Source: Escherichia coli
GTDB taxonomy: Bacteria > Pseudomonadota > Gammaproteobacteria > Enterobacterales > Enterobacteriaceae
DNA: 64,000 nucleotides
NCBI RefSeq assembly: GCF_024223415.1
Contig: NZ_CP100500.1
Strand: one strand, 5' to 3'
Shown here: positions 1,233-52,180 of the stretch, in pieces
Layout of the letters: each line of letters starts with the position of its first letter
Numbering within the stretch: position 1 is the first letter of the stretch
Notes under the pieces: model-generated
Databases searched by the model: none
Told to the model about the DNA's origin: nothing
What the model saw: only the letters and a program-made list of their open reading frames with translations
Made by a program: the position numbers and the translations under genes

Positions 1233-1296
1233 AAGAAAACGCCTGTACTAAAACCGACCCGTGGTACAGGCGAAGAATACGGGTCTACATCGGAAG
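1233..1296 (-). ncRNA. rydC: RydC small regulatory RNA
   Basis: Reverse complement of 1233-1296 reads CTTCCGATGTAGACCCGTATTCTTCGCCTGTACCACGGGTCGGTTTTAGTACAGGCGTTTTCTT, matching the 64-nt RydC sequence from memory; lies in the cybB-ydcA intergenic region as in K-12. Confidence 0.8.
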
Positions 1297-1711: not shown

Positions 1712-1861
<150 letters not shown>

Positions 1862-1894
1862 AGCCTTTCTCCTTGCCGGATGGCGGGTAAGAGG

Positions 1895-1965
1895 CTAAGA
1901 TCTGAATTGCTATGTTCATTCGTTGGCCTCGGTTGATAGAAATATCGGTCGGGGCCTTCGTCTTT
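1895..1965 (+). ncRNA. sokB: probable SokB antisense RNA (approximate)
   Basis: Inferred from hok/sok architecture: antisense RNA is encoded opposite the hok/mok leader just upstream of hokB. Ends not determined from sequence. Confidence 0.35.
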
Positions 1966-2249
1966 CTGATTCCCGGTTAGCCTGAAAACAGAAAGTCTCA
2001 GGCACCCGCAGGCATCCTATGAGGTTTCCTTAGGGACAAAATAATCACTTCACGAAATTGCGTGCTGTTTTCCAGAATTTTTCGTCATTCGGTTTAGCCA
2101 TTCGTTACTCTCTTCATTCCAATGGCATTAATCTTCTCTGCAATAATTGTTGTAAAAATGTGACGCAAAGAGGCTTTTAGTCGTAAGTAATTACCGTCAA
2201 ATGCCGATGACTTTCTATCAGGAGTAAACCTGGACGAGAGACAACGGTA

Positions 2250-8291: not shown

Positions 8292-8430
8292 TCGTTTTTT
8301 CTTCGGCACCTTCTTCGGGAGGTGCCGTCTGGTTAAACACGATCCCGCTCGCATTTTTCCCTAAGTTAAATGAGTAATCTGATGGTGTGTATTTCAGATA
8401 CACCTTGTCAGCCACTAACAGGGAGTGCGT

Positions 8431-8655
8431 ATGTTTCCAGAATATCGAGATTTAATATCCCGTCTGAAAAACGAAAATCCTCGCTTTATGTCCTTGTTCG
8501 ATAAACACAATAAACTTGATCATGAAATTGCCAGAAAGGAAGGTTCCGACGGTCGAGGGTACAATGCGGAAGTGGTCCGCATGAAAAAACAAAAGCTACA
8601 GTTAAAAGATGAGATGCTCAAAATCCTGCAGCAGGAGAGCGTCAAAGAGGTGTAA
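8431..8655 (+). CDS. ydcH: DUF465-family small protein
   Basis: 74-aa ORF from ATG 8431 (the track ORF begins at an upstream GTG); K-12 synteny. Confidence 0.8.
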   Translation: MFPEYRDLISRLKNENPRFMSLFDKHNKLDHEIARKEGSDGRGYNAEVVRMKKQKLQLKDEMLKILQQESVKEV

Positions 8656-8665
8656 ACTTTCCTAA

Positions 8666-8688
8666 GCCGCCAGCCAGGCGGCTTTTTT
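8666..8688 (+). terminator. rho-independent terminator after ydcH
   Basis: GCCGCC-AGCCAG-GCGGC stem-loop followed by TTTTTT. Confidence 0.7.
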
Positions 8689-8717
8689 AACAACTGCATG
8701 GATTGACTGGAGATAAG

Positions 8718-9257
8718 ATGACTGAAACGATAAAAGTAAGCGAATCACTTGAATTACATGCTGTTGCAGAAAATCACGTCACTCCTCTTTATCAGTTAAT
8801 CTGTAAAAATAAAACCTGGTTACAGCAGTCGCTAAACTGGCCGCAGTTCGTTCAGAGTGAAGAGGACACGCGAAAAACGGTGCAGGGTAATGTGATGTTG
8901 CATCAACGCGGCTATGCCAAAATGTTCATGATTTTCAAAGAAGATGAACTTATCGGCGTTATCTCGTTTAATCGTATTGAACCACTGAATAAAACCGCTG
9001 AAATAGGCTACTGGCTGGACGAATCTCATCAGGGGCAGGGGATCATTTCTCAGGCGCTGCAGGCATTGATTCATCATTACGCCCAGTCTGGTGAACTTAG
9101 ACGCTTCGTGATCAAATGTCGGGTGGACAATCCGCAAAGCAACCAGGTCGCTTTGCACAATGGTTTTATCCTTGAAGGTTGCCTGAAACAGGCTGAGTTC
9201 CTGAATGATGCCTATGATGATGTGAACTTATACGCGCGTATTATCGATTCACAATAA
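8718..9257 (+). CDS. rimL: ribosomal-protein-L7/L12 serine acetyltransferase (GNAT)
   Basis: ATG 8718 gives 179 aa; GNAT motifs ([17 protein letters not shown]). Confidence 0.9.
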
Positions 9258-10229
9258 CCCTGCCAGCGGCGTTCGCGTAATGCGCTCCTCGCCGTTAATG
9301 ACTTTTGGACCACGGACATGAACCGTGTCGCCATCAAAGGCTTCAACGACGGCGTGGTCGGTTAACTCCACATGGTTTTCAATTATCACCGCACCTGTAA
9401 TACGGCTCTTACCTTGTATTACAACGTGTTCGTCGAGCAGAATCGGTCCGCCACGTACCACGGCATTTCCGCCAATCAAGACATGATGTTTTAACACACA
9501 ATTACCTTCCACAATGGCATATTCCGCCACCTGTGAACTGTAATGAATCGTCGGAATGGCATCTTCTTCTATGCCAGCTTTCACCTGCGCGTGACCGTAG
9601 ACTTTAGCGCAATCGCATAGCCAGACGTTGTTCTCTTCATTACCTTCAATACTGGCAAAATCAAAAACTTCGGCGCGATGTTCAATAAAAGCATATCGGA
9701 TGACGGCATCGCCATAAATTTGTGCCTGGTGGACAATACGCGAGGCGCTAACCCTTGCGCGATCATAAATTTGTAGCAGGAGTTGATGGTCAGGCGTTAA
9801 GCCTTGTGCTGCGACGATCATAGAATGTTGATTAATTAAGGCGTGACCAAATATTCTACATTGCCCGCAAACCAGTGAGTCATGAATGGTGACGCTGTCA
9901 CTTATATATGCACCCTGGCTGATTTCACTATTATCGATCCAGACATTATCCGTTGCGTAAACCTCTCCCCACAGTACGCTGGTGCCGGTGATGCGCGTAT
10001 TACCGGAAATCACCGTTCCGCCGAACGCAATAGCATTCTGGTCGTAAATCCAGCAATTTCCTTCCTGTGCTAACACCGTTTCGCGATCGATCCAGCCGCC
10101 AGCGGTTCCTGCTATCACATCGTTAAAATCGCTCATGGCGATAATCTGCCGTAATAACACACTTTTTTTAGTGCCATCATCCTGATAACTAAAGGCTCGC
10201 TGTTCTTCACTTAGACGATATTTGCGCAT
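9249..10229 (-). CDS. ydcK: hexapeptide-repeat (left-handed beta-helix) protein
   Basis: 326-aa minus ORF with repeated hexapeptide pattern; 3' end overlaps rimL stop by 9 bp (convergent). Confidence 0.85.
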
Positions 10230-10352
10230 AGCGTTTTCCCACAGGTGACTTACTATAACCGTAGCAAATTCTGCGGCTCTGGCTATGCTCGAGAAAATTC
10301 CATAAAATGCATTTCAAATATACTTTATAAATTAAACAAAATGAGTAAGAAG

Positions 10353-11345
10353 ATGCAGAGCGATAAAGTGCTCAATTTGCCGGCAGGCTACTTTGGTATT
10401 GTGTTGGGGACTATAGGGATGGGATTTGCCTGGCGCTATGCCAGCCAGGTTTGGCAGGTCAGCCACTGGTTAGGGGATGGAATGGTGATTCTGGCGATGA
10501 TCATCTGGGGATTATTAGCTAGCGCATTTATTACCCGACTCATACGCTTTCCGCATAGCGTGCTGGCAGAAGTGCGCCATCCAGTGCTGAGCAGTTTTGT
10601 GAGTTTGTTTCCGGCAACGACGATGCTGGTAGCGATTGGTTTTGTTCCGTGGTTTCGCCCACTGGCGGTGTGCCTGTTCAGTTTTGGTGTCGTGGTTCAG
10701 TTGGCTTATGCCGCCTGGCAAACTGCGGGATTATGGCGCGGATCTCACCCTGAAGAAGCTACCACGCCTGGACTGTATCTGCCGACAGTTGCCAACAACT
10801 TTATCAGCGCAATGGCCTGTGGTGCGTTGGGCTACACCGACGCCGGTCTGGTGTTTTTAGGCGCAGGCGTTTTCTCATGGCTAAGCCTTGAACCGGTGAT
10901 CTTGCAGCGTCTGCGCAGTTCGGGAGAATTACCCACGGCACTGCGGACATCACTCGGCATTCAACTCGCTCCTGCGCTGGTGGCCTGTAGTGCCTGGCTG
11001 AGCGTCAACGGCGGCGAGGGTGACACGCTGGCGAAAATGCTTTTCGGTTATGGACTGCTGCAACTGCTGTTTATGCTACGTCTGATGCCATGGTATCTCT
11101 CCCAGCCATTTAATGCTTCATTCTGGAGTTTCTCGTTCGGCGTATCTGCACTGGCAACCACCGGTTTGCATCTGGGGAGTGGCAGCGATAATGGATTTTT
11201 CCATACGCTGGCGGTGCCGCTGTTTATCTTTACCAATTTTATTATTGCAATACTGCTCATCCGTACTTTTGCGCTTCTGATGCAGGGAAAATTGTTAGTC
11301 AGAACCGAGCGCGCCGTTTTAATGAAAGCAGAGGACAAAGAATGA
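10353..11345 (+). CDS. tehA: tellurite resistance / dicarboxylate exporter TehA
   Basis: Met at 10353 gives a 330-aa polytopic membrane protein; overlaps tehB start (ATGA). Confidence 0.9.
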
Positions 11346-11935
11346 TTATTCGTGACGAAAACTATTTTACTGATAAATATGAATTAACCCGCACACACTC
11401 TGAAGTACTGGAAGCGGTGAAAGTGGTTAAACCGGGTAAAACGCTGGATCTGGGCTGTGGCAATGGTCGTAACAGTCTTTACCTGGCAGCCAATGGTTAT
11501 GATGTTGACGCATGGGATAAAAATGCCATGAGTATCGCCAACGTCGAGCGCATTAAATCTATTGAAAATCTGGATAATTTACACACTCGGGTCGTTGATC
11601 TGAATAACCTCACATTTGCTGGACAGTACGATTTTATTCTTTCGACTGTGGTGCTGATGTTCCTTGAGGCTAAAACCATCCCAGGGCTGATTGCCAATAT
11701 GCAACGTTGCACGAAACCTGGCGGTTACAACCTGATTGTGGCGGCGATGGATACCGCTGATTATCCATGTACCGTCGGCTTCCCGTTTGCCTTCAAAGAG
11801 GGAGAATTACGTCGATATTACGAAGGCTGGGAGATGGTGAAATACAATGAAGACGTCGGCGAGCTGCACCGCACCGACGCCAACGGTAATCGTATTAAAC
11901 TGCGTTTCGCCACGATGCTGGCACGTAAAAAATGA
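11342..11935 (+). CDS. tehB: tellurite methyltransferase (SAM-dependent)
   Basis: 197-aa ORF with SAM-binding motif [15 protein letters not shown]. Confidence 0.95.
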
Positions 11936-12238
11936 TCCGGTAAGAACAAAGCGCGTGAAAATTCCCCACGCTGAGATGGTTTACTGTTCTTCTTTTCGGT
12001 AAGCATATTTTTTATCGAAGGGATGTGAAATTAATCACAGTAGTCGAAGTTTTTTAGCAGCTTAACTTACTGAAATTTAACTACTGATGATTGACTTAGC
12101 CCCTTTTTCGGCATTGACTATGTCGTCTGAAAAGGGGCTAAAAAAATTTATTTCCATCAACACTTTTTTTGCCACAACACGAAGCGGCGCTTTTTGCTAT
12201 AACTTAGAAAGTAATATAATCATCTCAGGAAACTATTC

Positions 12239-12907
12239 ATGCGTACCACATCATTTGCGAAAGTTGCAGCTTTATGCGGCTTGTTGGCTCTGTCTGGTTG
12301 TGCCTCTAAAATCACCCAGCCAGATAAATATTCTGGTTTTTTAAACAATTACTCTGATTTAAAAGAAACAACCTCGGCTACAGGTAAACCGGTTTTACGT
12401 TGGGTAGACCCGAGTTTTGATCAAAGCAAATATGACAGCATCGTCTGGAACCCAATCACTTATTATCCGGTACCGAAACCTTCGACCCAGGTAGGGCAGA
12501 AAGTTCTGGATAAAATTTTGAACTATACCAACACCGAAATGAAAGAAGCGATAGCGCAGCGTAAACCACTGGTTACCACCGCGGGGCCGCGTAGTCTGAT
12601 TTTCCGTGGGGCCATTACCGGTGTAGATACCAGCAAAGAAGGGCTGCAATTCTATGAAGTGGTTCCTGTTGCATTAGTGGTTGCGGGGACGCAAATGGCT
12701 ACAGGCCACCGTACCATGGATACTCGCTTGTATTTTGAAGGTGAGCTGATTGATGCAGCGACTAATAAACCGGTTATCAAAGTCGTTCGTCATGGCGAAG
12801 GTAAAGACCTGAATAACGAAAGTACGCCAATGGCTTTCGAAAATATTAAACAAGTTATTGATGACATGGCGACCGATGCCACCATGTTTGACGTTAACAA
12901 AAAGTAA
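12239..12907 (+). CDS. ydcL: lipoprotein YdcL
   Basis: 222-aa ORF; lipobox LALSGC in signal peptide. Confidence 0.9.
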   Translation: MRTTSFAKVAALCGLLALSGCASKITQPDKYSGFLNNYSDLKETTSATGKPVLRWVDPSFDQSKYDSIVWNPITYYPVPKPSTQVGQKVLDKILNYTNTEMKEAIAQRKPLVTTAGPRSLIFRGAITGVDTSKEGLQFYEVVPVALVVAGTQMATGHRTMDTRLYFEGELIDAATNKPVIKVVRHGEGKDLNNESTPMAFENIKQVIDDMATDATMFDVNKK

Positions 12908-21864: not shown

Positions 21865-22806
21865 ATGGCGATGAACGTATTGCAATCACCTTCACGTCCA
21901 GGTCTGGGTAAGGTGTCCGGTTTCTTCTGGCGGAATCCGGGGCTGGGGCTGTTTTTGCTGCTGCTTGGCCCGCTAATGTGGTTTGGCATTGTCTATTTCG
22001 GCTCGCTGCTAACGCTGTTATGGCAGGGCTTTTATACCTTTGACGATTTCACCATGTCGGTAACGCCGGAACTGACGCTGGCGAATATCCGTGCGCTGTT
22101 TAATCCGGCAAATTACGACATCATTCTCCGCACGCTGACTATGGCTGTGGCAGTCACTATCGCCAGCGCCATTCTGGCTTTTCCAATGGCGTGGTATATG
22201 GCGCGCTATACCAGCGGGAAAATGAAAGCGTTTTTTTATATTGCGGTAATGTTGCCGATGTGGGCGAGCTACATTGTTAAAGCCTATGCCTGGACGTTAT
22301 TGCTGGCAAAAGATGGCGTGGCTCAGTGGTTTTTACAACATCTTGGGCTGGAACCACTGCTGACAGCGTTCCTTACATTACCTGCGGTGGGCGGCAATAC
22401 GCTGTCAACTTCCGGGCTGGGGCGCTTTCTGGTGTTTCTCTATATCTGGCTGCCGTTCATGATCCTGCCCGTGCAGGCGGCGCTTGAGCGTTTGCCGCCG
22501 TCATTGTTGCAGGCGTCAGCTGATCTCGGCGCACGTCCACGACAAACCTTTCGCTATGTGGTGTTGCCGCTGGCGATCCCGGGTATTGCCGCTGGCTCTA
22601 TCTTTACCTTCTCACTCACACTGGGCGATTTTATCGTCCCGCAGCTGGTTGGCCCGCCAGGATATTTTATCGGCAATATGGTTTATTCCCAGCAGGGGGC
22701 GATTGGCAATATGCCGATGGCGGCGGCATTCACCCTGGTGCCGATTGTTCTTATCGCACTGTACCTGGCGTTCGTGAAACGTCTGGGAGCGTTTGATGCA
22801 CTCTGA
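21865..22806 (+). CDS. ydcU: ABC transporter permease
   Basis: 313-aa polytopic membrane ORF, start overlaps ydcT stop. Confidence 0.9.
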
Positions 22807-34282: not shown

Positions 34283-34879
34283 ATGATTAAGGTGTATGGC
34301 GTACCCGGATGGGGCTCTACAATCAGTGAGCTGATGCTAACACTGGCTGATATTCCTTATCAGTTCGTTGATGTCAGTGGTTTTGACCACGAGGGAGCTT
34401 CACGCGAGTTATTGAAAACCCTGAACCCGTTGTGTCAGGTTCCGACACTGGCATTGGAAAATGACGAGATTATGACGGAGACAGCGGCGATTGCATTGAT
34501 GGTTCTCGATCGTCGCCCGGACCTTGCGCCACCGGTTGGGCGCGCCGAACGTCAGCAGTTTCAACGGCTATTGGTCTGGCTGGTTGCTAATGTCTATCCA
34601 ACATTCACTTTCGCCGATTACCCTGAGCGTTGGGCTCCTGACGCACCCGAACAGTTAAAGAAGAATGTTATTGAATATCGTAAATCGCTTTATATCTGGC
34701 TGAATTCACAATTGACCCCTGAACCTTATGCGTTTGGTGAGCAACTAACGCTGGTGGACTGTTATCTTTGCACTATGCGCACATGGGGCCTGGGCATGAA
34801 TGGTTTCAGGATAATGCCACGAATATCAGTGCGATTGCTGATGCTGTATGTCAGTTACCGAAATTACAAGAAGTATTAA
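34283..34879 (+). CDS. yncG: glutathione S-transferase homolog
   Basis: 198-aa ORF with GST N-terminal thioredoxin-like fold; exact start uncertain. Confidence 0.8.
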   Translation: MIKVYGVPGWGSTISELMLTLADIPYQFVDVSGFDHEGASRELLKTLNPLCQVPTLALENDEIMTETAAIALMVLDRRPDLAPPVGRAERQQFQRLLVWLVANVYPTFTFADYPERWAPDAPEQLKKNVIEYRKSLYIWLNSQLTPEPYAFGEQLTLVDCYLCTMRTWGLGMNGFRIMPRISVRLLMLYVSYRNYKKY

Positions 34880-34974
34880 AAAGGAATGTCATTATTTGAG
34901 TGGGATACCAGAAGATTATGTTATTTATTATTCAGTAACTTTATCCACAATGATGGGCGTAATTAATTAGATTC

Positions 34975-36006: not shown

Positions 36007-38115
36007 ATGTCAACCGGATTACGTTTCACGCTGGAAGTGGACGGCCTGCCACCGGACGCGTTTGCGGTGGTCTCCTTTCATCTGAACCAGTCACTCTCTT
36101 CACTTTTTTCCCTCGACCTTTCTCTGGTCAGTCAGCAGTTTCTTTCCCTTGAATTTGCGCAGGTGCTGGACAAAATGGCCTACCTGACGGTATGGCAGGG
36201 CGATGACGTACAGCGCCGGGTGAAAGGTGTGGTGACCTGGTTTGAACTGGGGGAGAACGACAAAAACCAGATGCTGTACAGCATGAAGGTGTGCCCGCCG
36301 CTGTGGCGCACAGGGCTGCGCCAGAACTTCCGTATCTTCCAGAATGAGGACATCGAAAGCATCCTCGCTACGATATTGCAGGAAAACGGGGTGACCGAGT
36401 GGAGTCCGCTGTTCAGCGAGCCGCATCCTTCCCGTGAGTTTTGTGTCCAGTACGGCGAAACCGATTACGATTTCCTGTGCCGGATGGCGGCGGAGGAAGG
36501 CATCTTCTTTTATGAGGAGCACGCGCAAAAAAGTACCGACCAAAGCCTGGTCCTGTGCGATACCGTGCGTTATCTGCCGGAGTCCTTTGAGATCCCCTGG
36601 AATCCGAACACCCGTACCGAGGTAAGCACCCTCTGCATCAGCCAGTTTCGCTACAGCGCACAAATCCGCCCTTCTTCCGTGGTGACCAAAGACTACACCT
36701 TTAAACGCCCCGGCTGGGCCGGACGTTTTGACCAGGAAGGCCAGCACCAGGATTACCAGCGCACACAGTATGAAGTGTATGACTATCCCGGACGTTTCAA
36801 GGGCGCCCACGGGCAGAACTTTGCCCGCTGGCAGATGGACGGCTGGCGAAACAACGCAGAAGTGGCGCGCGGAACAAGCCGTTCGCCGGAGATATGGCCG
36901 GGACGGCGAATTGTGCTGACGGGGCATCCGCAGGCGAACCTGAACCGGGAATGGCAGGTGGTGGCAAGTGAACTGCACGGTGAGCAGCCGCAGGCGGTGC
37001 CGGGACGCAGTGGTTCAGGTACCTCGCTGAATAACCACTTTGCGGTAATCCCGGCAGACCGGACATGGCGGCCACAGCCGTTGCTGAAACCGCTGGTGGA
37101 CGGCCCGCAGAGCGCCGTCGTGACGGGACCGGCAGGCGAGGAAATCTTCTGTGATGAACATGGCCGCGTGCGGGTGAAATTTAACTGGGACCGCTATAAC
37201 CCGTCAAACCAGGACAGTTCATGCTGGATCCGTGTGGCACAGGCGTGGGCAGGCACCGGATTCGGTAACCTTGCGATACCGCGCGTGGGTCAGGAGGTGA
37301 TTGTGGACTTCCTCAACGGCGATCCGGACCAGCCGATCATTATGGGGCGCACCTACCACCAGGAAAACCGCACACCCGGCAGCCTGCCGGGAACAAAGAC
37401 GCAGATGACCATTCGTTCGAAAACCTATAAGGGCAGCGGGTTTAATGAACTGAAGTTTGACGATGCGACAGGGAAAGAACAGGTCTACATCCACGCGCAG
37501 AAGAACATGAACACCGAGGTGCTGAATAACCGCACCACGGATGTGATAAACAACCATGCTGAGACCATTGGCAACAATCAGATGATTGCGGTTACCAACA
37601 ATCAGATACAGACGGTGGGCGTTAACCAGATAGAGACGGTGGGCAGTAACCAGATCATTAACGTGGGTTCTGTTCAGGTGGAAACGATTGGACTTGTTCG
37701 TGCGCTGACCGTGGGCGTGGCGTACCAGACGACGGTAGGTGGCATTATGAACACTTCGGTGGCTCTGATGCAGTCCTCGCAGATCGGTTTGCATAAATCT
37801 TTGAGGGTCGGGCTGGGTTATGACGTCAAAGTCGGAAATAACGTTACCTTCACCGTTGGTAAAACGAAAAAGGATGATACCGGGCAGACCGCGATTTACT
37901 CCGCCGGTGAGCATCTGGAGCTCTGCTGTGGTAAGGCAAAGCTGGTGCTGACAAAGGACGGTCAAATTTTTCTCAACGGCACAAAAATTCATTTGCAGGG
38001 TAAGGAGCAGGTTAATGGTGACTCACTGTTGATTAACTGGAACTGTGCAGCCTCGAAATCCCCACCGAAGACCCCTGATGAAAAGCAGGATACGCCGGAT
38101 ATGAGAGAGTACTGA
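36007..38115 (+). CDS. vgrG: type VI secretion spike protein VgrG
   Basis: ATG 36007 after GGAGG; 702 aa; gp27-like N-terminus (MSTGLRFTLEVDGLPPDAFAVVSFHLNQSLSSLFSLDLSLVS) and gp5-like beta-helical repeats (VINNHAETIGNNQMIAVTNNQIQTVGVNQIETVGSNQIINVGSVQVETIG). Confidence 0.9.
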   Translation: MSTGLRFTLEVDGLPPDAFAVVSFHLNQSLSSLFSLDLSLVSQQFLSLEFAQVLDKMAYLTVWQGDDVQRRVKGVVTWFELGENDKNQMLYSMKVCPPLWRTGLRQNFRIFQNEDIESILATILQENGVTEWSPLFSEPHPSREFCVQYGETDYDFLCRMAAEEGIFFYEEHAQKSTDQSLVLCDTVRYLPESFEIPWNPNTRTEVSTLCISQFRYSAQIRPSSVVTKDYTFKRPGWAGRFDQEGQHQDYQRTQYEVYDYPGRFKGAHGQNFARWQMDGWRNNAEVARGTSRSPEIWPGRRIVLTGHPQANLNREWQVVASELHGEQPQAVPGRSGSGTSLNNHFAVIPADRTWRPQPLLKPLVDGPQSAVVTGPAGEEIFCDEHGRVRVKFNWDRYNPSNQDSSCWIRVAQAWAGTGFGNLAIPRVGQEVIVDFLNGDPDQPIIMGRTYHQENRTPGSLPGTKTQMTIRSKTYKGSGFNELKFDDATGKEQVYIHAQKNMNTEVLNNRTTDVINNHAETIGNNQMIAVTNNQIQTVGVNQIETVGSNQIINVGSVQVETIGLVRALTVGVAYQTTVGGIMNTSVALMQSSQIGLHKSLRVGLGYDVKVGNNVTFTVGKTKKDDTGQTAIYSAGEHLELCCGKAKLVLTKDGQIFLNGTKIHLQGKEQVNGDSLLINWNCAASKSPPKTPDEKQDTPDMREY

Positions 38116-38181
38116 TCCCGTACCTGTTCGGTATTCAGTAACAAACAAGCATTAAAAATAAACAGAAGAAGGAATTGAATC

Positions 38182-41100
38182 ATGAGCGGAAAACCAGCGG
38201 CGCGTCAGGGAGATATGACTCAGTATGGCGGTCCCATTGTCCAGGGTTCGGCAGGTGTAAGAATTGGCGCGCCCACCGGCGTGGCGTGCTCGGTGTGTCC
38301 GGGCGGGATGACCTCGGGCAACCCGGTAAATCCGCTGCTGGGGGCGAAGGTGCTGCCCGGCGAGACGGACCTTGCGCTGCCCGGCCCGCTGCCGTTCATT
38401 CTCTCCCGCACCTACAGCAGCTACCGGACGAAGACGCCTGCGCCGGTGGGGATTTTTGGCCCCGGCTGGAAAGCGCCTTCTGATATCCGCTTACAGCTAC
38501 ATGATGACGGACTGATACTCAACGACAACGGCGGGCGGAGCATTCACTTTGAGCCGCTGCTGCCGGGGGAGGCGGTGTACAGCCGCAGCGAGTCAATGTG
38601 GCTGGTGCGCGGTGGTAAGGCAGCGCAGCCGGACGGCCACACGCTGGCGCGGCTGTGGGGGGCGCTGCCGCCGGATATCCGGTTAAGCCCGCATCTTTAC
38701 CTGGCGACCAACAGCGCACAGGGGCCGTGGTGGATACTGGGGTGGTCAGAGCGGGTGCCGGGTGCTGAGGACGTACTGCCAGCGCCGCTGCCGCCGTACC
38801 GGGTGCTTACCGGGCTGGCAGACCGTTTCGGGCGGACGCTGACGTACCGGCGTGAGGCCGCAGGCGACCTGGCCGGGGAAATCACCGGCGTGACGGACGG
38901 TGCCGGGCGTGAGTTCCGTCTGGTACTGACCACACAGGCACAGCGGGCGGAAGAGGCCCGCACCTCTTCGCTATCTTCTTCTGACAGTTCCCGCCCTCTC
39001 TCAGCCTCAGCGTTCCCCGACACACTGCCCGGTACCGAATACGGCCCCGACAGGGGTATCCGTCTTTCAGCGGTGTGGCTGATGCACGACCCGGCATACC
39101 CGGAGAATCTGCCCGGTGCGCCACTGGCGCGGTACACGTATACGGAAGCCGGTGAACTGCTGGCGGTATATGACCGCAGCAATACGCAGGTGCGCGCTTT
39201 CACGTATGACGCGCAGCACCCGGGCCGGATGGTGGCGCACCGTTACGCGGGAAGGCCGGAGATGCGCTACCGCTACGACGATACCGGGCGGGTGGTGGAG
39301 CAGCTGAACCCGGCAGGCCTGAGTTACCGCTACCAGTATGAGCAGGACCGCATCACCGTCACGGATAGCCTGAACCGGCGTGAGGTGCTGCATACAGAAG
39401 GCGGGGCCGGGCTGAAGCGGGTGGTGAAAAAAGAACTGGCGGACGGCAGCGTCACGCACAGCGGGTATGACGCGGCAGGAAGGCTCACGGCGCAGACGGA
39501 CGCGGCGGGACGGCGGACAGAGTACGGTCTGAATGTGGTGTCCGGCGATATCACGGACATCACCACACCGGACGGGCGGGAGACGAAATTTTACTATAAC
39601 GACGGGAACCAGCTGACGGCGGTGGTGTCCCCGGACGGGCTGGAGAGCCGCCGGGCATATGATGAACCGGGCAGGCTGGTATCGGAGACATCGCGCAGCG
39701 GGGAGACAGTACGCTACCGCTACGATGATGCGTACAGTGAGTTACCGGCGACGACAACAGATGCGACGGGCAGCACCCGGCAGATGACCTGGAGCCGCTA
39801 CGGTCAGTTGCTGGCGTTCACCGACTGCTCGGGCTACCAGACCCGCTATGAATACGACCGCTTCGGCCAGATGACGGCGGTCCACCGCGAGGAAGGCATC
39901 AGCCTTTACCGCCGCTATGACAACCGTGGCCGGTTAATCTCGGTGAAAGACGCACAGGGCCATGAAACGCGGTATGAGTACAACGCCGCAGGCGACCTGA
40001 CTGCCGTCATTACCCCGGACGGCAACCGGAGCGAGACACAGTACGATGCGTGGGGAAAGGCGGTCAGCACCACGCAGGGCGGGCTGACGCGCAGTATGGA
40101 GTACGATGCTGCCGGACGTGTCATCAGCCTGACCAACGAGAACGGCAGCCGGAGTGAGTTTACCTACGATGCGCTGGACCGCCTGGTACAGCAGGGCGGC
40201 TTTGACGGGCGGACGCAGCGTTACCGTTATGACCTGACCGGAAAACTCACGCAGAGTGAAGATGAGGGGCTTGTCATCCTCTGGTACTACGATGAATCGG
40301 ACCGTATCACTCACCGCACGGTGAACGGCGAACCGGCAGAGCAGTGGCAGTATGATGGCCACGGCTGGCTGAGAGAAATCAGCCACCTGAGCGAAGGCCA
40401 CCGTGTTGCCGTCCACTATGGCTATGACGATAAAGGCCGCCTGACCGGCGAACGCCAGACGGTGGAGAACCCGGAGACGGGGGAACTGCTGTGGCAGCAT
40501 GAGACGAAACACGCATACAACGAGCAGGGGCTGGCAAACCGCGTCACGCCGGACAGCCTGCCGCCGGTGGAGTGGCTGACGTATGGCAGCGGTTACCTGG
40601 CGGGAATGAAGCTGGGCGGGACGCCGCTGGTCGAGTATACGCGGGACAGGCTGCACCGGGAGACGGTGCGCAGCTTCGGCAATAATGCATATGAACTGAC
40701 CAGCACTTACACCCCCGCAGGCCAGTTACAGAGCCAGCACCTGAACAGCCTGGTGTATGACCGTGACTACGGGTGGAATGACAACGGCGACCTGGTGCGC
40801 ATCAGCGGTCCGCGACAGACGCGGGAATACGGCTACAGCGCCACGGGCAGGCTGGAGAGTGTGCGCACCCTCGCACCGGACCTGGACATCCGCATCCCGT
40901 ATGCCACGGACCCGGCGGGCAACCGGCTGCCGGACCCGGAGCTGCACCCGGACAGTACACTCACAGTGTGGCCGGATAACCGAATCACCGAAGACGCGCA
41001 CTACCTGTACCGTTACGATGAATACGGCAGGCTGACGGAGAAGACGGACCGCATCCCGACGGGTGTGATACGGACGGACGACGAGCGGACCCACCACTAC

Positions 41101-42387
41101 CACTACGACAGCCAGCACCGCCTGGTGTTCTACACGCGGATACAGCATGAGGAGCCACTGGTCGAGAGCCGCTACCTCTACGACCCGCTGGGACGGCGAA
41201 TGGCAAAACGGGTCTGGCGGCGGGAGCGTGACCTGACGGGGTGGATGTCGCTGTCGCGTAAACCGGAGGAGACATGGTACGGGTGGGACGGCGACAGGCT
41301 GACGACGGTGCAGACTGACACCACACGTATCCAGACGGTCTACCAGCCGGGGAGCTTCACGCCGCTCATCCGTATCGAGACAGAGAACGGCGAACGGGAG
41401 AAAATGCAGCGCCGCAGCCTGGCGGAGAAGCTGCAGCAGGAAGGAAGTGAGGACGGTCACGGTGTGGTGTTCCCGGCTGAGCTGGTGAGGATGCTGGACA
41501 GGCTGGAGGAAGAAATCCGGGCAAACTGCGTGAGCAGTGAAAGCCGCCAGTGGCTTGCGCAGTGCGGGCTGACGGTGGAGCGGCTGGCGGCACAGATAGA
41601 GCCGGTTTATTTGCCTGAGCGAAAAATACATCTTTATCACTGTGACCACCGGGGCCTGCCGCTGGCGCTTATCAGTGAAGACGGCAATACGGCGTGGCGC
41701 GGGGAGTATGATGAATGGGGCAACCAGCTTAATGAAGAGAACCCGTATTACCTGCACCAGCCATACCGTCTGCCGGGGCAGCAGCATGATGAGGAATCAG
41801 GGCTGTACTATAACCGGAACCGGTACTATGACCCGCTACAGGGGAGGTATATTACACAAGACCCCATTGGGCTGGAGGGGGGATGGAACCTGTACCAATA
41901 TCCGCTGAATCCAGTGCAACACGTTGATCCATTAGGGCTTAGTACTATGATAATAGGTAACGGCCCCGTTCCTGATAATCCTTTTGGGCATGCTGCGGCG
42001 GCAAATCGATATGGATTAATGAGTTCGGGAACTGGGGATGAGATGGGAGCCTCTGTCTCTGATTATTTTAAAAAGATGCAACCCCGCAGAGATACCTGGA
42101 TTTGGATAATAGATACAACAGATGAAGAAGAACAATGTATGATGAATAAGGCAATAGACCTTAATAAAAAACTAAAAACTATTAACCTCGGGCCTCTTCC
42201 TGTTTTAAATAATTGTTTTAGCCGAACGAACATGATTTTTGAGGCGTGCGGGTTTAACAACCCCTCTATGAATACAAATGCGCCTATAAGCCTACAAGTG
42301 CTCGGTGAGCTTTATGGATATCAAAGATATATTATGCCTAAAGGTCCTTTCACTGGATTCCCATTTGAATTTCAAGAGGTAAAGTAA
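38182..42387 (+). CDS. rhsE: PAAR-domain Rhs polymorphic toxin (T6SS effector), 1401 aa
   Basis: N-terminal [31 protein letters not shown] (PAAR motif); many YD repeats ([30 protein letters not shown]...); Rhs core terminating at PxxxxDPLGL (ends 41940); gene symbol assigned by synteny only. Confidence 0.9.
41941..42387 (+). other. Rhs C-terminal variable toxin domain (about 148 aa), family not recognised
   Basis: Begins immediately after DPLGL; base composition switches from GC-rich core to AT-rich; sequence [25 protein letters not shown]...[19 protein letters not shown]... has no motif I can assign. Confidence 0.75.
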
Positions 42388-42786
42388 ATGGAAATGCTTG
42401 GGAAGATATTAGTGATAATTATTTCCATGATAATTATATCTTGTGATTATTATAATGCTGGCATGGACTATCAAGATAATATAGCCCTCGAGCAAGTCGT
42501 AACATGGGATTCTGATAATATATTCACACCTAATATCTTTGAACATAATGGAAGATGTTTTATGAAGAAAAATGAAACATGGATGTTATTAAATGGAGAT
42601 GCAACACCAAACATTAGAACAATGAGCAATAAGAAAATAGAATGCCTGGAGAAGAGTGAAGTAGAATGGGCTAGTAGGGTTTGCGACAGTATCACAGACA
42701 AGGAAAGGGAAAATCTGAAGGCATTAATATGTAGCAAACCAGCTAAATCAGTTAATACAGGCAAAAGACCAGCGTTAGGATATTGA
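42388..42786 (+). CDS. probable Rhs immunity protein (132 aa, lipoprotein-like)
   Basis: ATG directly abuts rhs stop (TAA-ATG); AT-rich; N-terminal hydrophobic stretch ending in lipobox-like IISC. Confidence 0.7.
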   Translation: MEMLGKILVIIISMIIISCDYYNAGMDYQDNIALEQVVTWDSDNIFTPNIFEHNGRCFMKKNETWMLLNGDATPNIRTMSNKKIECLEKSEVEWASRVCDSITDKERENLKALICSKPAKSVNTGKRPALGY

Positions 42787-43229
42787 AACCGGCACTGCAC
42801 TCTATCACTATTACAATATTCTGAGTGACTAGAGCAACTGCTCCGCCATCCGGGCTAGCAGTATGACGACGAATCCGAACTGCACTACAACTGGCACCGG
42901 TACTACAATCCGGGACAGGGACCAGGGAAAGATCACGGTGTGCCGTAGGCACAAAGATGCAAAACGGGACGTTTTGCATGTAATAAGCATAAGCTTGTGA
43001 AGAGATGGTGGCAGGCCCACCGGGATCTGCTGTCGGAAGTCGGTCCCAAACAACCCCGGCTGCTGTGGTAAAGAGCCAAGGTAGTGAGCGCAGGGGGAAC
43101 GATCAGACGAGATCTGATCCTGTGTGAGATACAGTGAGATGAGTAAACCCGAACCTGTGTTGAAACGTCGTTAGTCCTAAGTGACATCAAAACCGGAGGT
43201 TTCGTGATACCGCCTGGATTAATTTACGG

Positions 43230-44725
43230 GTGAATTCCGAATGCTGCGTAAATGGTGTCCGGCGTATAGCAGGCATGACGCTGTATCAGGCTCTTTGCAG
43301 GAACTACGGGAACCAGTCGTCGCAATGTCAAGAGAGAAATACAAATAACCGAAATTATGAGTATGAGAGTATCGATGTGCGAAACCGGGGCAGAGCTGTT
43401 CGTAGTAGTGAGGAAGCGTTTGTAATGAATGTGGAGCGAAGGGGCAACGTCGGGCAGTCTGCATCACAGCCCAACTGTAAACAGGAGGAGGCTGCGGGTG
43501 AACAGACAAAACCGTTTCAGGTCAGTAAATTGCATGTGGTGGAAGCGTACCGTCGGGTAAAGGCGAATGCCGGAGCTGCCGGAGTGGATAACCAGACGCT
43601 GAAAGATTTTGAGCGGGATCTGAAAGGAAATCTGTACAAAATCTGGAACAGGTTATCGTCGGGAAGCTGGATGCCGCCGCCAGTGCGTGCGGTGGAAATT
43701 CCGAAGAAGGATGGCAGTAAAAGGCTTTTAGGAATACCGACAGTAAGCGATCGAATAGCGCAGATGACGGTGCTGGTAACGTTTGAACCATTAGTGGAGC
43801 GTTATTTCCTGAATGATTCATACGGATACCGGCATGGAAAATCAGCGCTGGATGCAATAGCAGTTACCAGAAAACGTTGCTGGCAATACGACTGGTGTCT
43901 TGAGTTTGATATTAAAGGGTTATTCGATAATATCCCCCACGATTTATTACTCAGGGCAGTGGATAAACATTGCGCGGATAAATGGGTAAGACTGTATATT
44001 CGCAGGTGGCTGACAGCGCCGGTGCAGATGCCGGATGGAACACTGAAGGAAAGAAATAAAGGTACGCCACAGGGTGGAGTCATCAGTCCGGTACTGGCGA
44101 ATTTATTTCTGCACTATGTGTTTGATAAATGGCTGTCGTTACATTATCCGGAAATTCCCTGGTGTCGTTATGCAGATGATGGATTAATTCATTGTGGCAG
44201 TAAACAACAGGCAGAGGAATTACTGAATAAACTGGCAAAACGTTTTCAGGAATGTGGACTGGAATTACATCCGGAGAAAACGAAAATAGTTTACTGCAAA
44301 GACAGCTAACGACAGGCGAACCACGAAACAGTGCAGTTTGATTTTCTGGGTTATACGTTCAGGGCGAGAAGAGCACGTAATCAGCGAAGTGGAAATCTCT
44401 TTACGAGTTTCAGTCCGGCGGTGAGTAACAGTGCGCAGAAAGGCATGATCGAAAAACTCAGGAAACTGCGGCTCAGACGCAGGGTGGAGATGAGTCTCGA
44501 AGATATTGCGAAAAGGCTGAATCCGATGATATCGGGGTGGCTGAATTATTACGCGAAATACCACAAAGATATATTAATCTGACGCTGATTGCGTGGGCGA
44601 GAAAGAAATATAAAACCCTGCGGTATAGAAAGACGAAGGCGTGTCAGCTAATGGAAAGGCTGTCAAAAGAGAAGCCGGAGTTGTTTGCCCACTGGAATGC
44701 AGGACCGGAAAGCGCGTTTGCCTGA
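43230..44725 (+). pseudogene. group II intron-encoded reverse transcriptase/maturase, split over three frames
   Basis: 43230-44309 has RT motifs (RLLGIPTVSDRIAQMTVL, PQGGVISPVLANLFLHYV, CRYADDGLIHC); maturase continues in 44331-44582 (FDFLGYTFRARRARNQRSG...GWLNYYAKYH) and 44537-44725 (IAWARKKYKTL...LFAHW), so there are at least two frame disruptions. Confidence 0.75.
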
Positions 44726-44728
44726 CGG

Positions 44729-44762
44729 GAGCCGTATGAAGCGAGAGTTTCACGTACGGTTC
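44729..44762 (+). ncRNA. group II intron ribozyme domain V
   Basis: GAGCCGTATGAAGCGAGAGTTTCACGTACGGTTC fits the domain V consensus (GAGCCGUAUG...ACGUACGGUUC) with catalytic AGC triad. Confidence 0.8.
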
Positions 44763-44945
44763 TGCGAGAGGCTGTCGGGGAGGTTCCGGTGGCCTACTCA
44801 CTTAACGCTGCTTTTTTGTACTAAATAATTCGCATTTTATGTTTAAAAATTGAGATATTCCCCATTACCTAAAGCTGTTTTTTATTGCTTATACATGATC
44901 AAATACTCCTTACATAATTAAGGAGAACAAAATGGAATTAAAAAA

Positions 44946-49263: not shown

Positions 49264-49944
49264 TTATCGCCGCGAGCGCACAATCTGATACCGACGAGTA
49301 AAGTACTCAAACGGGGCGCTCCACACATGCACCAGTCGGGTGAACGGGAAGAGCACGAAGATGGTCATTCCCAACACCAGATGCAGGCGGAAGACGAACG
49401 CTACACCGTTAAGCATCTCTGACGATCCACCACGGAAAGTGACAATGCTTTGCGCCCAACCCACCAGCTTCATCATTTCGCTACCATCAGGATACTGTGC
49501 TGAAAACGGTATGGTGCTTAGCCCCAACAGACACTGGACCAGCAAAATGCTCATGATGATGATATCCGGCGTAGTGGAAGTGGCACGCACGCGCTGATTT
49601 GTCAGCCTGCGCCACAGCAGTCCTGCGCCACCAATCAACGTCAACACACCGCAAATGCCTCCGAGCACCATCGCCATTAGTTGTTTCGCTGCCACCGGCA
49701 AAAACCACGCGTACATCCAGTGCGGCGTTAACATGCCGAACAGGTGCCCGAAGAAAATCCCCAAAATGCCAATATGGAACAGATTCGACCATATCACCAT
49801 CCCGCGTTTATCGAGCATTTGACTTGAGGAGGCGCGCCAGGTGTACTGCCCGTAGTCGTAGCGCAGCCAGCTGCCGAGGAAAAACACCGTCGCACAAATG
49901 TACGGGTAGATATCGTAAAAAAAGACGTTCAGATACTGAATCAT
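49264..49944 (-). CDS. narV: nitrate reductase Z gamma (cytochrome b) subunit
   Basis: 226-aa membrane ORF; NarI family. Confidence 0.95.
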
Positions 49945-50636: not shown

Positions 50637-52180
50637 TATTCGCCCTCCGCTTTGTCGCGCACTTCGGTGATGTTGATGGCATCGATACGGCTACTGTTGA
50701 ACAGGTTGAATTTACTGTCCGAACCGTGGCAACCGTCGCCAAAGGTAAAACCGCAGCCGTTGCGTTCTGCGAAGGCATCGCCCGCCATTTCCCGATGGCT
50801 GGTCGGGATAACAAAACGATCTTCATAGTTGGCAATGGCGAGATAGCGATACATTTCTTCGACCTGGGCGACGCTCAGGCCTACTTCGTCGATGGCACGA
50901 GTATCAGTAACGCCTTCCACGGTTTGTGAACGCATATAGTGGCGCATCGCCATCATCCGTTTCAGCGCCCGCAGTACCGGACCAGTATCACCGGCACTCA
51001 ACATATTGGCGAGATATTGCACTGGAATACGCAGGCTTTCGATGGCGGGGAGCACGCCTTCGCTTTTCGGCAAACCGCCCGCATCAGCGTAAGACTGAAT
51101 CGGTGACAGCGGAGGAACGTACCAGACCATCGGCAGGGTGCGGTATTCAGGGTGCAACGGTAGCGCCAGTTTCCAGTCCATCGCCATTTTGTAGACAGGC
51201 GAACGCTGGGCAGCGTCAATCACATTTTGTGGAATACCTTGTTTCAGGGCTTCCTCGATCACTGAGGGATCGTGCGGATCGAGGAACACTTCGCACTGGC
51301 GTTCATAGAGGTCAACCTCGCGCTCGGTGCTTGCCGCTTCCTCAATGCGGTCGGCGTCGTAAAGCAGCACGCCCAGATACCGGATGCGACCCACGCAGGT
51401 TTCTGAGCAAACGGTCGGTTGACCGGACTCAATTCGTGGGTAACAGAAGATACATTTTTCTGACTTGCCGCTTTTCCAGTTGAAGTAGATTTTTTTGTAC
51501 GGACAACCGCTAATGCACAAACGCCAGCCACGGCATTTATCCTGATCAATCAGCACAATGCCGTCTTCTTCGCGTTTGTAGATAGCGCCGCTTGGGCAGG
51601 TCGCCACGCAGCTGGGATTGAGGCAGTGTTCGCACAGGCGCGGCAGGTACATCATGAAGGTGTTTTCAAACTGCCCGTACATCTCCTTTTGCATGGCCTC
51701 GAAGTTGCGGTCGCGGGCACGTTTTTCAAACTCGCCGCCCAGCAGTTCTTCCCAGTTTGGCCCCCAGATCACTTTGTCCATCCGCTTACCGTCAATCAGC
51801 GAACGCGGGCGAGCAGTAGGGATATGTTTGCCTTCCGGTGCGCTATGCAAATGTTCGTAGTCGAAGGTGAAAGGTTCGTAGTAATCATCAATCTGCGGCA
51901 CCACCGGGTTGGCGAAGATTTTGGTTATTACGCCCATCTTACTGCCCAGACGCGGGCGTATCTTGCCATTCACATCGCGGACCCAGCCGCCTTGCCACTC
52001 TTCCTGATCTTCCCAGTTTTTCGGATAACCAATGCCCGGTTTGGTTTCGACGTTGTTAAACCATGCGTACTCCATGCCTTCGCGTCCGGTCCAGACGTTT
52101 TTACAGGTCACCGAACAGGTATGGCAGCCGATACATTTATCGAGATTAAGCACCATGCCGACTTGCGAACGGATTATCAT
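50636..52180 (-). CDS. narY: nitrate reductase Z beta (Fe-S) subunit
   Basis: 514-aa ORF with multiple Cys clusters (CIGCHTCSVTC, CEHCLNPSCVATCP). Confidence 0.95.
   Translation of the reverse strand: MIIRSQVGMVLNLDKCIGCHTCSVTCKNVWTGREGMEYAWFNNVETKPGIGYPKNWEDQEEWQGGWVRDVNGKIRPRLGSKMGVITKIFANPVVPQIDDYYEPFTFDYEHLHSAPEGKHIPTARPRSLIDGKRMDKVIWGPNWEELLGGEFEKRARDRNFEAMQKEMYGQFENTFMMYLPRLCEHCLNPSCVATCPSGAIYKREEDGIVLIDQDKCRGWRLCISGCPYKKIYFNWKSGKSEKCIFCYPRIESGQPTVCSETCVGRIRYLGVLLYDADRIEEAASTEREVDLYERQCEVFLDPHDPSVIEEALKQGIPQNVIDAAQRSPVYKMAMDWKLALPLHPEYRTLPMVWYVPPLSPIQSYADAGGLPKSEGVLPAIESLRIPVQYLANMLSAGDTGPVLRALKRMMAMRHYMRSQTVEGVTDTRAIDEVGLSVAQVEEMYRYLAIANYEDRFVIPTSHREMAGDAFAERNGCGFTFGDGCHGSDSKFNLFNSSRIDAINITEVRDKAEGE

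Follow-up and report, generated by a model that had tools for sequence, protein, structure and literature searches.

The DNA analysed in this work (the window) is a stretch of 64,000 nucleotides of an Escherichia coli chromosome, extending from cybB to fdnG, whose first 39 kb are the same as in E. coli SCU-316 (NZ_CP054371.1) except for three substitutions. In the part of the window that concerns us the local gene order is opgD, ydcH, rimL, ydcK, tehA, tehB and ydcL (Table 1). The region is widespread in the species, and a 3.6-kb query around the overlaps described below matched 5412 of 5426 complete E. coli genomes, with 100% identity in at least six among the matches listed. The gene models of NCBI PGAP (NZ_CP054371.1) and of the MG1655 reference annotation (NC_000913.3) were compared, and the coordinates agree for all four genes; in MG1655 these are rimL 1498938-1499477, ydcK 1499469-1500449, tehA 1500573-1501565 and tehB 1501562-1502155, with an offset of 1490220 from MG1655 to the window. 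A scan of the whole window at the Rfam gathering threshold revealed no known RNA at 8300-12400.

Table 1. Coordinates of the genes, junctions and other elements discussed in the text (window positions).
Feature	Position	Strand	Description
rimL CDS	8718..9257	+	179 aa, TAA stop 9255-9257; ribosomal protein L7/L12-serine N-acetyltransferase, GNAT family
ydcK CDS	9249..10229	-	326 aa, TGA stop 9251-9249; left-handed beta-helix / beta-solenoid protein, function unknown
rimL/ydcK tail-to-tail overlap	9249..9257	both	9 bp, from sequence
Untranslated rimL 3' extension, antisense into ydcK	9258..9367	+	reaches published Rho region (PMC7815308)
ydcK/tehA divergent intergenic region	10230..10352		123 bp, from sequence
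NsrR-like inverted repeat	10304-10326		within the ydcK/tehA intergenic region, from sequence
tehA CDS	10353..11345	+	330 aa, TGA stop 11343-11345; SLAC1-family anion channel / tellurite resistance protein
tehB Shine-Dalgarno	11331..11335	+	GAGGA, within the last tehA codons, 6 nt before ATG
tehA/tehB stop/start overlap	11342..11345	+	ATGA, from sequence; tehB ATG 11342-11344, tehA TGA 11343-11345
tehB CDS	11342..11935	+	197 aa; SAM-dependent tellurite methyltransferase
ydcT/ydcU	21864/21865	+	abut, gap 0; TGA then ATG
ydcU/ydcV co-directional overlap	22796..22806	+	11 bp
narV/narW	49941-49944	-	4-bp ATGA overlap
narW/narY	50636	-	TAATG, 1 bp shared
narY/narZ	52177-52180	-	4-bp ATGA overlap

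The products of the four genes were compared with protein families and solved structures. RimL matched Pfam Acetyltransf_3 at 2e-22, and residues 1-178 of its 179 align with the PDB RimL chains 1s7f and 1z9u. In the case of YdcK, Pfam B_solenoid_ydck and LbH matches were obtained, and residues 1-325 of 326 align with PDB entries 2f9c and 2pig. TehA presented a match to Pfam SLAC1 at 3e-43. TehB matched Pfam TehB at 1e-109 with an alignment that begins at residue 1, and its residues 1-197 align with PDB 2xva and 4dq0, the crystallised E. coli TehB being matched from residue 1 as well. The existence of solved Salmonella YdcK and RimL structures indicates that both genes are also present in that genus. 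Taken with full-length orthologues in 37 species, the Pfam and PDB evidence shows that rimL and ydcK are both genuine up to their annotated stops.

The preliminary description of this DNA had claimed that rimL and ydcK overlap by 9 bp at their 3' ends and that tehA and tehB overlap by ATGA. Both overlaps were recovered, the former in the raw sequence, in the list of open reading frames and in the two annotations, and the latter in the sequence and in the two annotations. The 9 bp shared by rimL and ydcK, TCACAATAA, translate as Ser-Gln-stop in the RimL frame, and the reverse complement, TTATTGTGA, translates as Leu-Leu-stop in the YdcK frame. The codons of the two genes are placed in antiparallel register (phase 123:321), in such a way that TAA, where rimL stops, reads TTA (Leu) in the ydcK frame on the opposite strand, and TGA, where ydcK stops, reads TCA (Ser) in the rimL frame. 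The two genes thus form a convergent pair in which the stops lie on opposite strands and each of them within the CDS of the other gene.

Overlaps of this kind could be artefacts of annotation, produced by a wrong choice of starts or stops, which would be gone once the correct gene models are used. Upstream alternative starts do exist for rimL (TTG at 8703) and for tehA (GTG at 10245), but they sit at the far ends of these genes and leave the overlaps unaffected. The convergent overlap is made of two stop codons, which are set by the reading frames and are not reassignable, and therefore it hinges only on both open reading frames being real; orthologues and the solved structures validate the rimL and ydcK frames right up to the final residue. 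As regards the other junction, the tehB ATG at 11342 aligns with the first residue of the Pfam profile as well as of the PDB TehB, and it is kept in 35 of 37 loci. Both overlaps survive when alternative starts and stops are considered, which the preliminary description had named as what would remove them. The fixed stops, the structures and the orthologues lead us to reject the artefact, which is refuted for practical purposes and to which we assign a practically negligible probability. It should be mentioned, as a separate observation, that the longer tehA open reading frame from GTG 10245 is used by neither of the annotations.

Overlapping genes are frequent in E. coli. In a count by Huvet & Stumpf (2014, PMC4161906), 663 of 4131 gene pairs overlap (~16%), of which 586 lie in the same orientation, 75 are convergent, and the other 2 divergent; an older count gave 58 convergent overlaps, and an intrinsic terminator was predicted for only about 20% of the genes in them (Lillo & Krakauer 2007, PMC2174442). 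According to the latter work, phase 123:321 accounts for 33% of the convergent overlaps of at least 5 nt. In our window there are 58 adjacent annotated pairs, of which 8 overlap and another 3 abut. The convergent pairs (n=11) include yncP/hokB, with a 23-bp overlap, rimL/ydcK, with 9 bp, ydcY/ydcZ, which abut, and pptA/yddH, separated by 3 bp. Similar overlaps had been proposed for ydcT/ydcU/ydcV and narV/narW/narY/narZ; this holds for ydcU/ydcV and for all the nar junctions, but not for ydcT/ydcU, where the gap is 0. The overlaps in the window are not above the chance or routine level.

The rimL/ydcK pair resembles the short convergent overlapping pairs already described (PMC2174442, PMC4161906) in that the last codons are common to two real genes of opposite strands, in phase 123:321, the complements of the stops being Leu and Ser codons, and in that the origin is best explained by stop loss and read-through. 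Like about 80% of the E. coli genes involved in convergent overlaps (PMC2174442), rimL and ydcK show no intrinsic terminator near the junction. Nothing substantive sets the pair apart from this class, since its 9 bp, although longer than the modal 4-bp class, are within the common range.

Another aspect to consider is how transcription ends at this junction. It had been stated that the overlap leaves no room for a terminator between the two genes, and indeed there is no intergenic space and two terminator scans were empty: a consensus scan found no hairpin-plus-U terminator near the junction on either strand, and a combined RNAfold and U-tract scan (+ strand 9101-9900, - strand 9400-8601) found no intrinsic terminator near it. 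One weak terminator candidate was observed on the - strand at ~8853, about 400 nt into rimL. Past the rimL stop, the C/G ratios in successive 100-nt bins (9258-9657) were 1.14, 1.47, 1.75 and 1.58, a moderate skew towards C over G.

Published data from MG1655 are more informative in this respect. Adams et al. (2021, PMC7815308, Supplementary file 2) placed a region of Rho termination on the + strand at 1499587, antisense to ydcK, with a Rho score of 4.31 (p 1.5e-8); the reads upstream and downstream of this position were 82 and 20 without bicyclomycin, and 137 and 144 with it (PMC7815308). It should be noted that this call comes from a single MG1655 data set, with 800-nt windows and low read counts (PMC7815308). 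Position 1499587 corresponds to 9367 in the window, 110 nt past the rimL stop and within ydcK. In the tables of the same work there are no Term-seq 3' ends for rimL, ydcK, tehA or tehB, and the sole ydcK entry is the Rho region (PMC7815308). These bicyclomycin data (PMC7815308) show that rimL transcripts enter ydcK as antisense and are stopped by Rho. In mechanistic terms, past its stop rimL is transcribed as untranslated antisense RNA for some 100 nt or more within ydcK, where Rho brings transcription to an end. The likeness to Rho-dependent termination past stop codons and antisense suppression (PMC7815308) lies in the bicyclomycin-sensitive drop of coverage about 110 nt after the rimL stop, located in a moderately C>G sequence devoid of a hairpin-U signal; the difference is that the rimL case is a regional call from one genome-wide data set. 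The mapping of transcript ends had been suggested as a check of whether the convergent transcripts overlap as antisense, and this point is largely answered by the published MG1655 data (PMC12288877, PMC7815308).

To place the junction in an evolutionary context, one genome per species was scanned with YdcK, and 37 informative Enterobacteriaceae loci (L004-L040) carrying rimL and ydcK were obtained, the survey covering species other than Salmonella. In all 37 loci rimL is convergent to ydcK, and the gene order rimL-ydcK-(tehA)-tehB is kept in the 37 species. The overlap of exactly 9 bp is present in 31 of the 37 species, including Escherichia, Citrobacter, Enterobacter-like taxa, Pluralibacter, Yokenella and Trabulsiella. 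These 31 overlaps comprise nine distinct 9-mers, and both stops are preserved in every one of them: the rimL stop varies among TAA, TAG and TGA, facing TTA, CTA and TCA in ydcK, and the ydcK stop varies between TGA and TAA, facing TCA and TTA in rimL. Elsewhere the distance between the genes is different, with a gap of 0 in two Cedecea species and in Dryocola, an overlap of 4 bp in isolate RIT693 and a gap of 22 bp in a Buttiauxella MAG. In Superficieibacter 1612 rimL presents an earlier stop (...RIFE-stop) that leaves a gap of 3 bp, and both genes are retained; its relative S. electus retains the overlap.

The ends of the proteins are informative about how the overlap may have arisen. In the taxa that do not have the 9-bp overlap, RimL ends in ...YARI(I/V)(E/D)-stop and YdcK in ...PFYGVF-stop; in Cedecea, Dryocola, Buttiauxella and RIT693, treated as outgroups, the RimL ending is ...RI(I/V)(E/D)-stop. 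In the taxa with overlap, RimL is lengthened by 1-4 poorly conserved residues and always closes with an S(Q/E/K/T)-stop module that lies within the overlap. The length of the tail past YARI(I/V) varies (2-5 residues), but the S(Q/E)-stop module is constant. As judged from these sequences, the 9-bp convergent overlap appears to be old and stable, and the pattern fits a C-terminal extension of RimL that became locked by dual coding. The most likely origin, on the same comparison, is the loss of the RimL stop followed by reading on into the antisense of ydcK; placing the extension in the ingroup takes Cedecea, Buttiauxella and Dryocola to be outgroups.

Under this proposal, RimL would have lost an ancestral stop just past the conserved ...YARI(I/V)(D/E) and would have read into the antisense of ydcK, ending at the first in-frame stop, that is, at the reverse complement of a ydcK Leu or Ser codon (TTA, CTA, TCA). 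The junction would then be locked on both sides. If that ydcK codon (TTA in the window) were replaced by a synonymous, common Leu codon, RimL would be lengthened by about 35 residues (on the + strand of the window the next in-frame stop is found ~35 codons past the rimL stop), and a change of the rimL TCA/TTA codon would abolish the ydcK stop and make YdcK 7 residues longer. Since changes in either stop would lengthen one of the proteins, the conservation of the junction is expected from selection on the protein ends alone. Purifying selection on both ends would keep the geometry, and the overlap would not require a function of its own. In addition, the overlap was lost in Superficieibacter 1612, where RimL has recovered an early stop and both genes are kept, which argues that it is dispensable.

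The exact 9-bp geometry across genera could also reflect selection for obligatory antisense transcription, as opposed to the inertia of dual coding, and the regulatory explanations have to be weighed at this point. One of them is that rimL/ydcK works as a functional convergent excludon, in which the overlap and the absence of a terminator were selected for mutual repression through antisense RNA or polymerase collisions, so that the expression of RimL (L12 acetylation) and that of YdcK would be mutually exclusive. The pair is in fact one of the 165 convergent transcript overlaps that ExcludonFinder detected in MG1655 (PMC12288877), the criterion being that the transcripts overlap in 50% or more of 58 RNA-seq samples from MG1655 (PMC12288877). 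This membership of the MG1655 'excludome' (PMC12288877), the entry of rimL transcription into ydcK before Rho halts it (PMC7815308) and the maintenance of the convergent layout with the 9-bp overlap in 31 of 37 species all agree with such a role. However, pairs with overlapping CDS receive the call almost automatically once both genes are transcribed, and the listing of rimL-ydcK says nothing on regulation; six other convergent pairs of the same region are also listed, which makes membership undistinctive. Furthermore, the antisense extension is limited by Rho, the outgroups do without the overlap, and Superficieibacter 1612 lost it and kept both genes.

As regards the convergent excludons described previously (PMC12288877), the likeness consists of the listing of the pair, the overlap of its transcripts and the short, here negative, intergenic distance. 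In contrast, rimL and ydcK overlap in coding sequence and not in UTRs, and convergent excludons are defined by mutually exclusive expression and/or RNase III processing, whereas what is known of rimL-ydcK is the overlap of its transcripts; a search of the literature turned up, for this pair in particular, no data on reciprocal expression, on RNase III products or on dsRNA. For these reasons we regard a functional excludon as improbable. A stronger proposal, according to which the exact 9-bp overlap and the lack of an intrinsic terminator make up a selected, obligatory antisense module that controls RimL and YdcK reciprocally across the Escherichia-Citrobacter-Enterobacter lineage, seems to us more improbable still. 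If it were true, such reciprocal control would hint at a functional link between two acyltransferase-like proteins.

The tehA/tehB junction is co-directional: the stop of tehA overlaps the start of tehB, and the ribosome-binding site of tehB is inside tehA. There is no other in-frame start close to the tehB ATG, and a GAGGA or AAGGA at the position of the Shine-Dalgarno is conserved in related species. Among the 26 species that have both tehA and tehB, the genes overlap by 4 bp in 12 and by 1 bp in 13; the remaining one, Pluralibacter, is ambiguous, with a ATGATGATG run permitting -4, -1 or +2. In 11 related species tehA is missing, and tehB, with its own Shine-Dalgarno, is located directly after the ydcK-divergent promoter region. 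A truncated tehA was observed in one Escherichia sp.

The junction had been described as consistent with translational coupling. Its anatomy, with the GAGGA 6 nt upstream, and the conservation of the -4/-1 arrangement agree with this description and fit a coupled tehAB, which we infer from the sequence. The genes tehA and tehB form one operon, in which ribosomes that end tehA could reinitiate on tehB; an alternative within the same coupling is that the tehB site would be kept unfolded for fresh initiation. An occluding structure at the tehB ribosome-binding site, which would favour strict coupling, was considered and rejected, because the predicted RNA folding there is weak (-3 to -4 kcal/mol).

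It is also conceivable that the ATGA represents compaction only, and that TehB is initiated independently at its own strong Shine-Dalgarno. The spacing of the GAGGA and the little predicted structure around it are in line with independent initiation, and since tehB has a good Shine-Dalgarno and functions without tehA in 11 species, translation of TehB need not depend on tehA. Nevertheless, the genes keep a -4 or -1 junction in 25 of 26 species over roughly 25% protein divergence, which is typical of coupled pairs, and we consider initiation independent of tehA a possible but rather unlikely explanation. The tehA/tehB junction resembles ATGA coupled operon junctions such as those of narZYWV in the same strand, a shared ATGA and a Shine-Dalgarno inside the upstream gene, and its distance is conserved as -4 or -1. 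The tehAB case differs from them in that tehB also stands alone in related species and in that its coupling is deduced from sequence.

In the ydcK/tehA intergenic region there is an NsrR-like inverted repeat, AAAATGCATTTCAAATATACTTT, whose half-site ATGCATTTNAAAT is conserved in position in 19 related loci and in K-12. An NsrR prediction and a weak regulation of tehA have been cited (PMC2884951). In the repeat, agreement with the consensus is limited to the left half-site and the AAAT core, and a search for the full NsrR consensus with up to 3 mismatches gave no match in the window.

Taken together, we consider it very probable that this region is a routine example of compact gene organization, with a rimL/ydcK overlap that is a locked byproduct, a rimL transcript ended by Rho, and a tehAB operon with presumed coupling. 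The analysis confirmed that the rimL/ydcK and tehA/tehB overlaps are real, ordinary and already known, being annotated in every E. coli genome. Also known already are the gene models, the convergent overlaps that arise by stop loss, the clearing of untranslated 3' and antisense RNA by Rho, the ATGA and TAATG junctions, and the transcript overlap of rimL and ydcK. The finding is in this sense of little importance, as the reference annotation already contains the overlaps, the transcript overlap is catalogued and the Rho-dependent end of rimL is in a published table. The comparative result (nine sequence variants, one secondary loss and overlap-free outgroups) adds detail and no new kind of feature. 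What it contributes is a 9-bp junction that is maintained through family-level divergence in the form of nine sequences, always with both stops, and that obliges ydcK to carry, at that place, Ser TCA or one of the rare Leu codons TTA and CTA. The rimL/ydcK pair would then be a clean textbook case of a tail-to-tail overlap that is locked in evolution without needing a function of its own.

The gene upstream of rimL, ydcH, is followed by an intrinsic terminator graded strong, whose 3' end lies only 30 nt from the rimL start codon; our consensus scan for intrinsic terminators failed to pick it up. Since no sigma-70-like promoter was found between this terminator and rimL, transcription of rimL may originate from read-through or from a promoter inside ydcH.

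Upstream of tehA, we observed an NsrR-like inverted repeat whose ATGCATTTNAAAT core is kept at the same position in 19 related loci, including those of species in which tehB directly follows the promoter region. PMC2884951 cites both an NsrR site prediction by Rodionov et al. 2005 and a weak regulation of E. coli tehA by NsrR. The repeat agrees with this predicted site and with that weak regulation.

tehA is missing from 11 of the 37 related Enterobacteriaceae species (loci L023, L025-L028, L032-L036 and L039). In these loci tehB is directly divergent from ydcK and carries a Shine-Dalgarno sequence of its own. For Escherichia sp. MOD1-EC7003 (L004), TehA is detectable at residues 42-102 only. 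Two loci are probably derived from mislabelled or contaminated public assemblies. L025 is a rimL-ydcK-tehB locus of Enterobacteriaceae type in a record titled 'Chryseobacterium sp. 18061'; its junction and its protein ends are the same as in L027 ('Citrobacter sp. 18056'). L042 is a 237-bp contig of 1.4x coverage in an Alkalicoccobacillus porphyridii assembly, with 97% protein-level identity to E. coli ydcK.

Other elements of the window, including the known RNA elements recovered by an Rfam scan, are listed in the table. The small ORF that directly abuts the RHS core gene is possibly an immunity gene. In the comparison with the near-identical strain SCU-316 (NZ_CP054371.1), substitutions cluster inside the RHS core gene (39-41 kb). 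The group II intron is located between the Rhs element, which closely precedes it, and the ISAs1 transposase gene ydcC on its downstream side. Between its two Rfam domains sits ltrA, a reverse transcriptase/maturase gene for which the SCU-316 annotation gives a frameshift and an internal stop. The SCU-316 annotation also presents several frameshifted pseudogenes in the regions corresponding to 34283-34899 and 57708-61559 of the window: yncG, espR1 and other leucine-rich-repeat fragments, and an ompC-like porin. The register between both sequences is lost beyond ~57.9 kb, and therefore an indel near this point is suggested.

Features located in the window
Feature	Position	Strand	Detail
RydC sRNA	1233-1296	-	Rfam
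sokB antitoxin RNA	1856-2007	-	Rfam; adjoins hokB
Intrinsic terminator after ydcH	8664-8688	+	8-bp GC-rich stem and U6; -15.2 kcal/mol; z = -3.1
NsrR-like inverted repeat	10304-10326	+	AAAATGCATTTCAAATATACTTT; 27 nt upstream of tehA ATG
VgrG gene (T6SS tip protein), then RHS core gene and small ORF	36007-42786	+	
RHS core protein	38182-42387	+	1401 aa
Hypothetical ORF	42388-42786	+	132 aa
Group II intron	43007-44802	+	Rfam domains on both sides of ltrA
Group II intron domain RF01999	43007-43122	+	Rfam, 93.9 bits
Group II intron domain RF00029	44727-44802	+	Rfam, 62.8 bits
fdnG selenocysteine insertion sequence	63509-63567	+	Rfam

With regard to the other convergent genes, yncP/hokB is the window's other convergent coding overlap (23 bp). 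Two further convergent pairs of the window, ydcL/ydcO and rlhA/yncJ, have minus-strand members that have each been associated with Rho: in the table that also contains the ydcK case (PMC7815308, Supplementary file 2), ydcO and yncJ each have an antisense Rho termination region (MG1655 coordinates 1505179 and 1508960, respectively, both on the + strand). As these are found besides the case of ydcK, Rho termination within the convergent partner seems to recur in this region.
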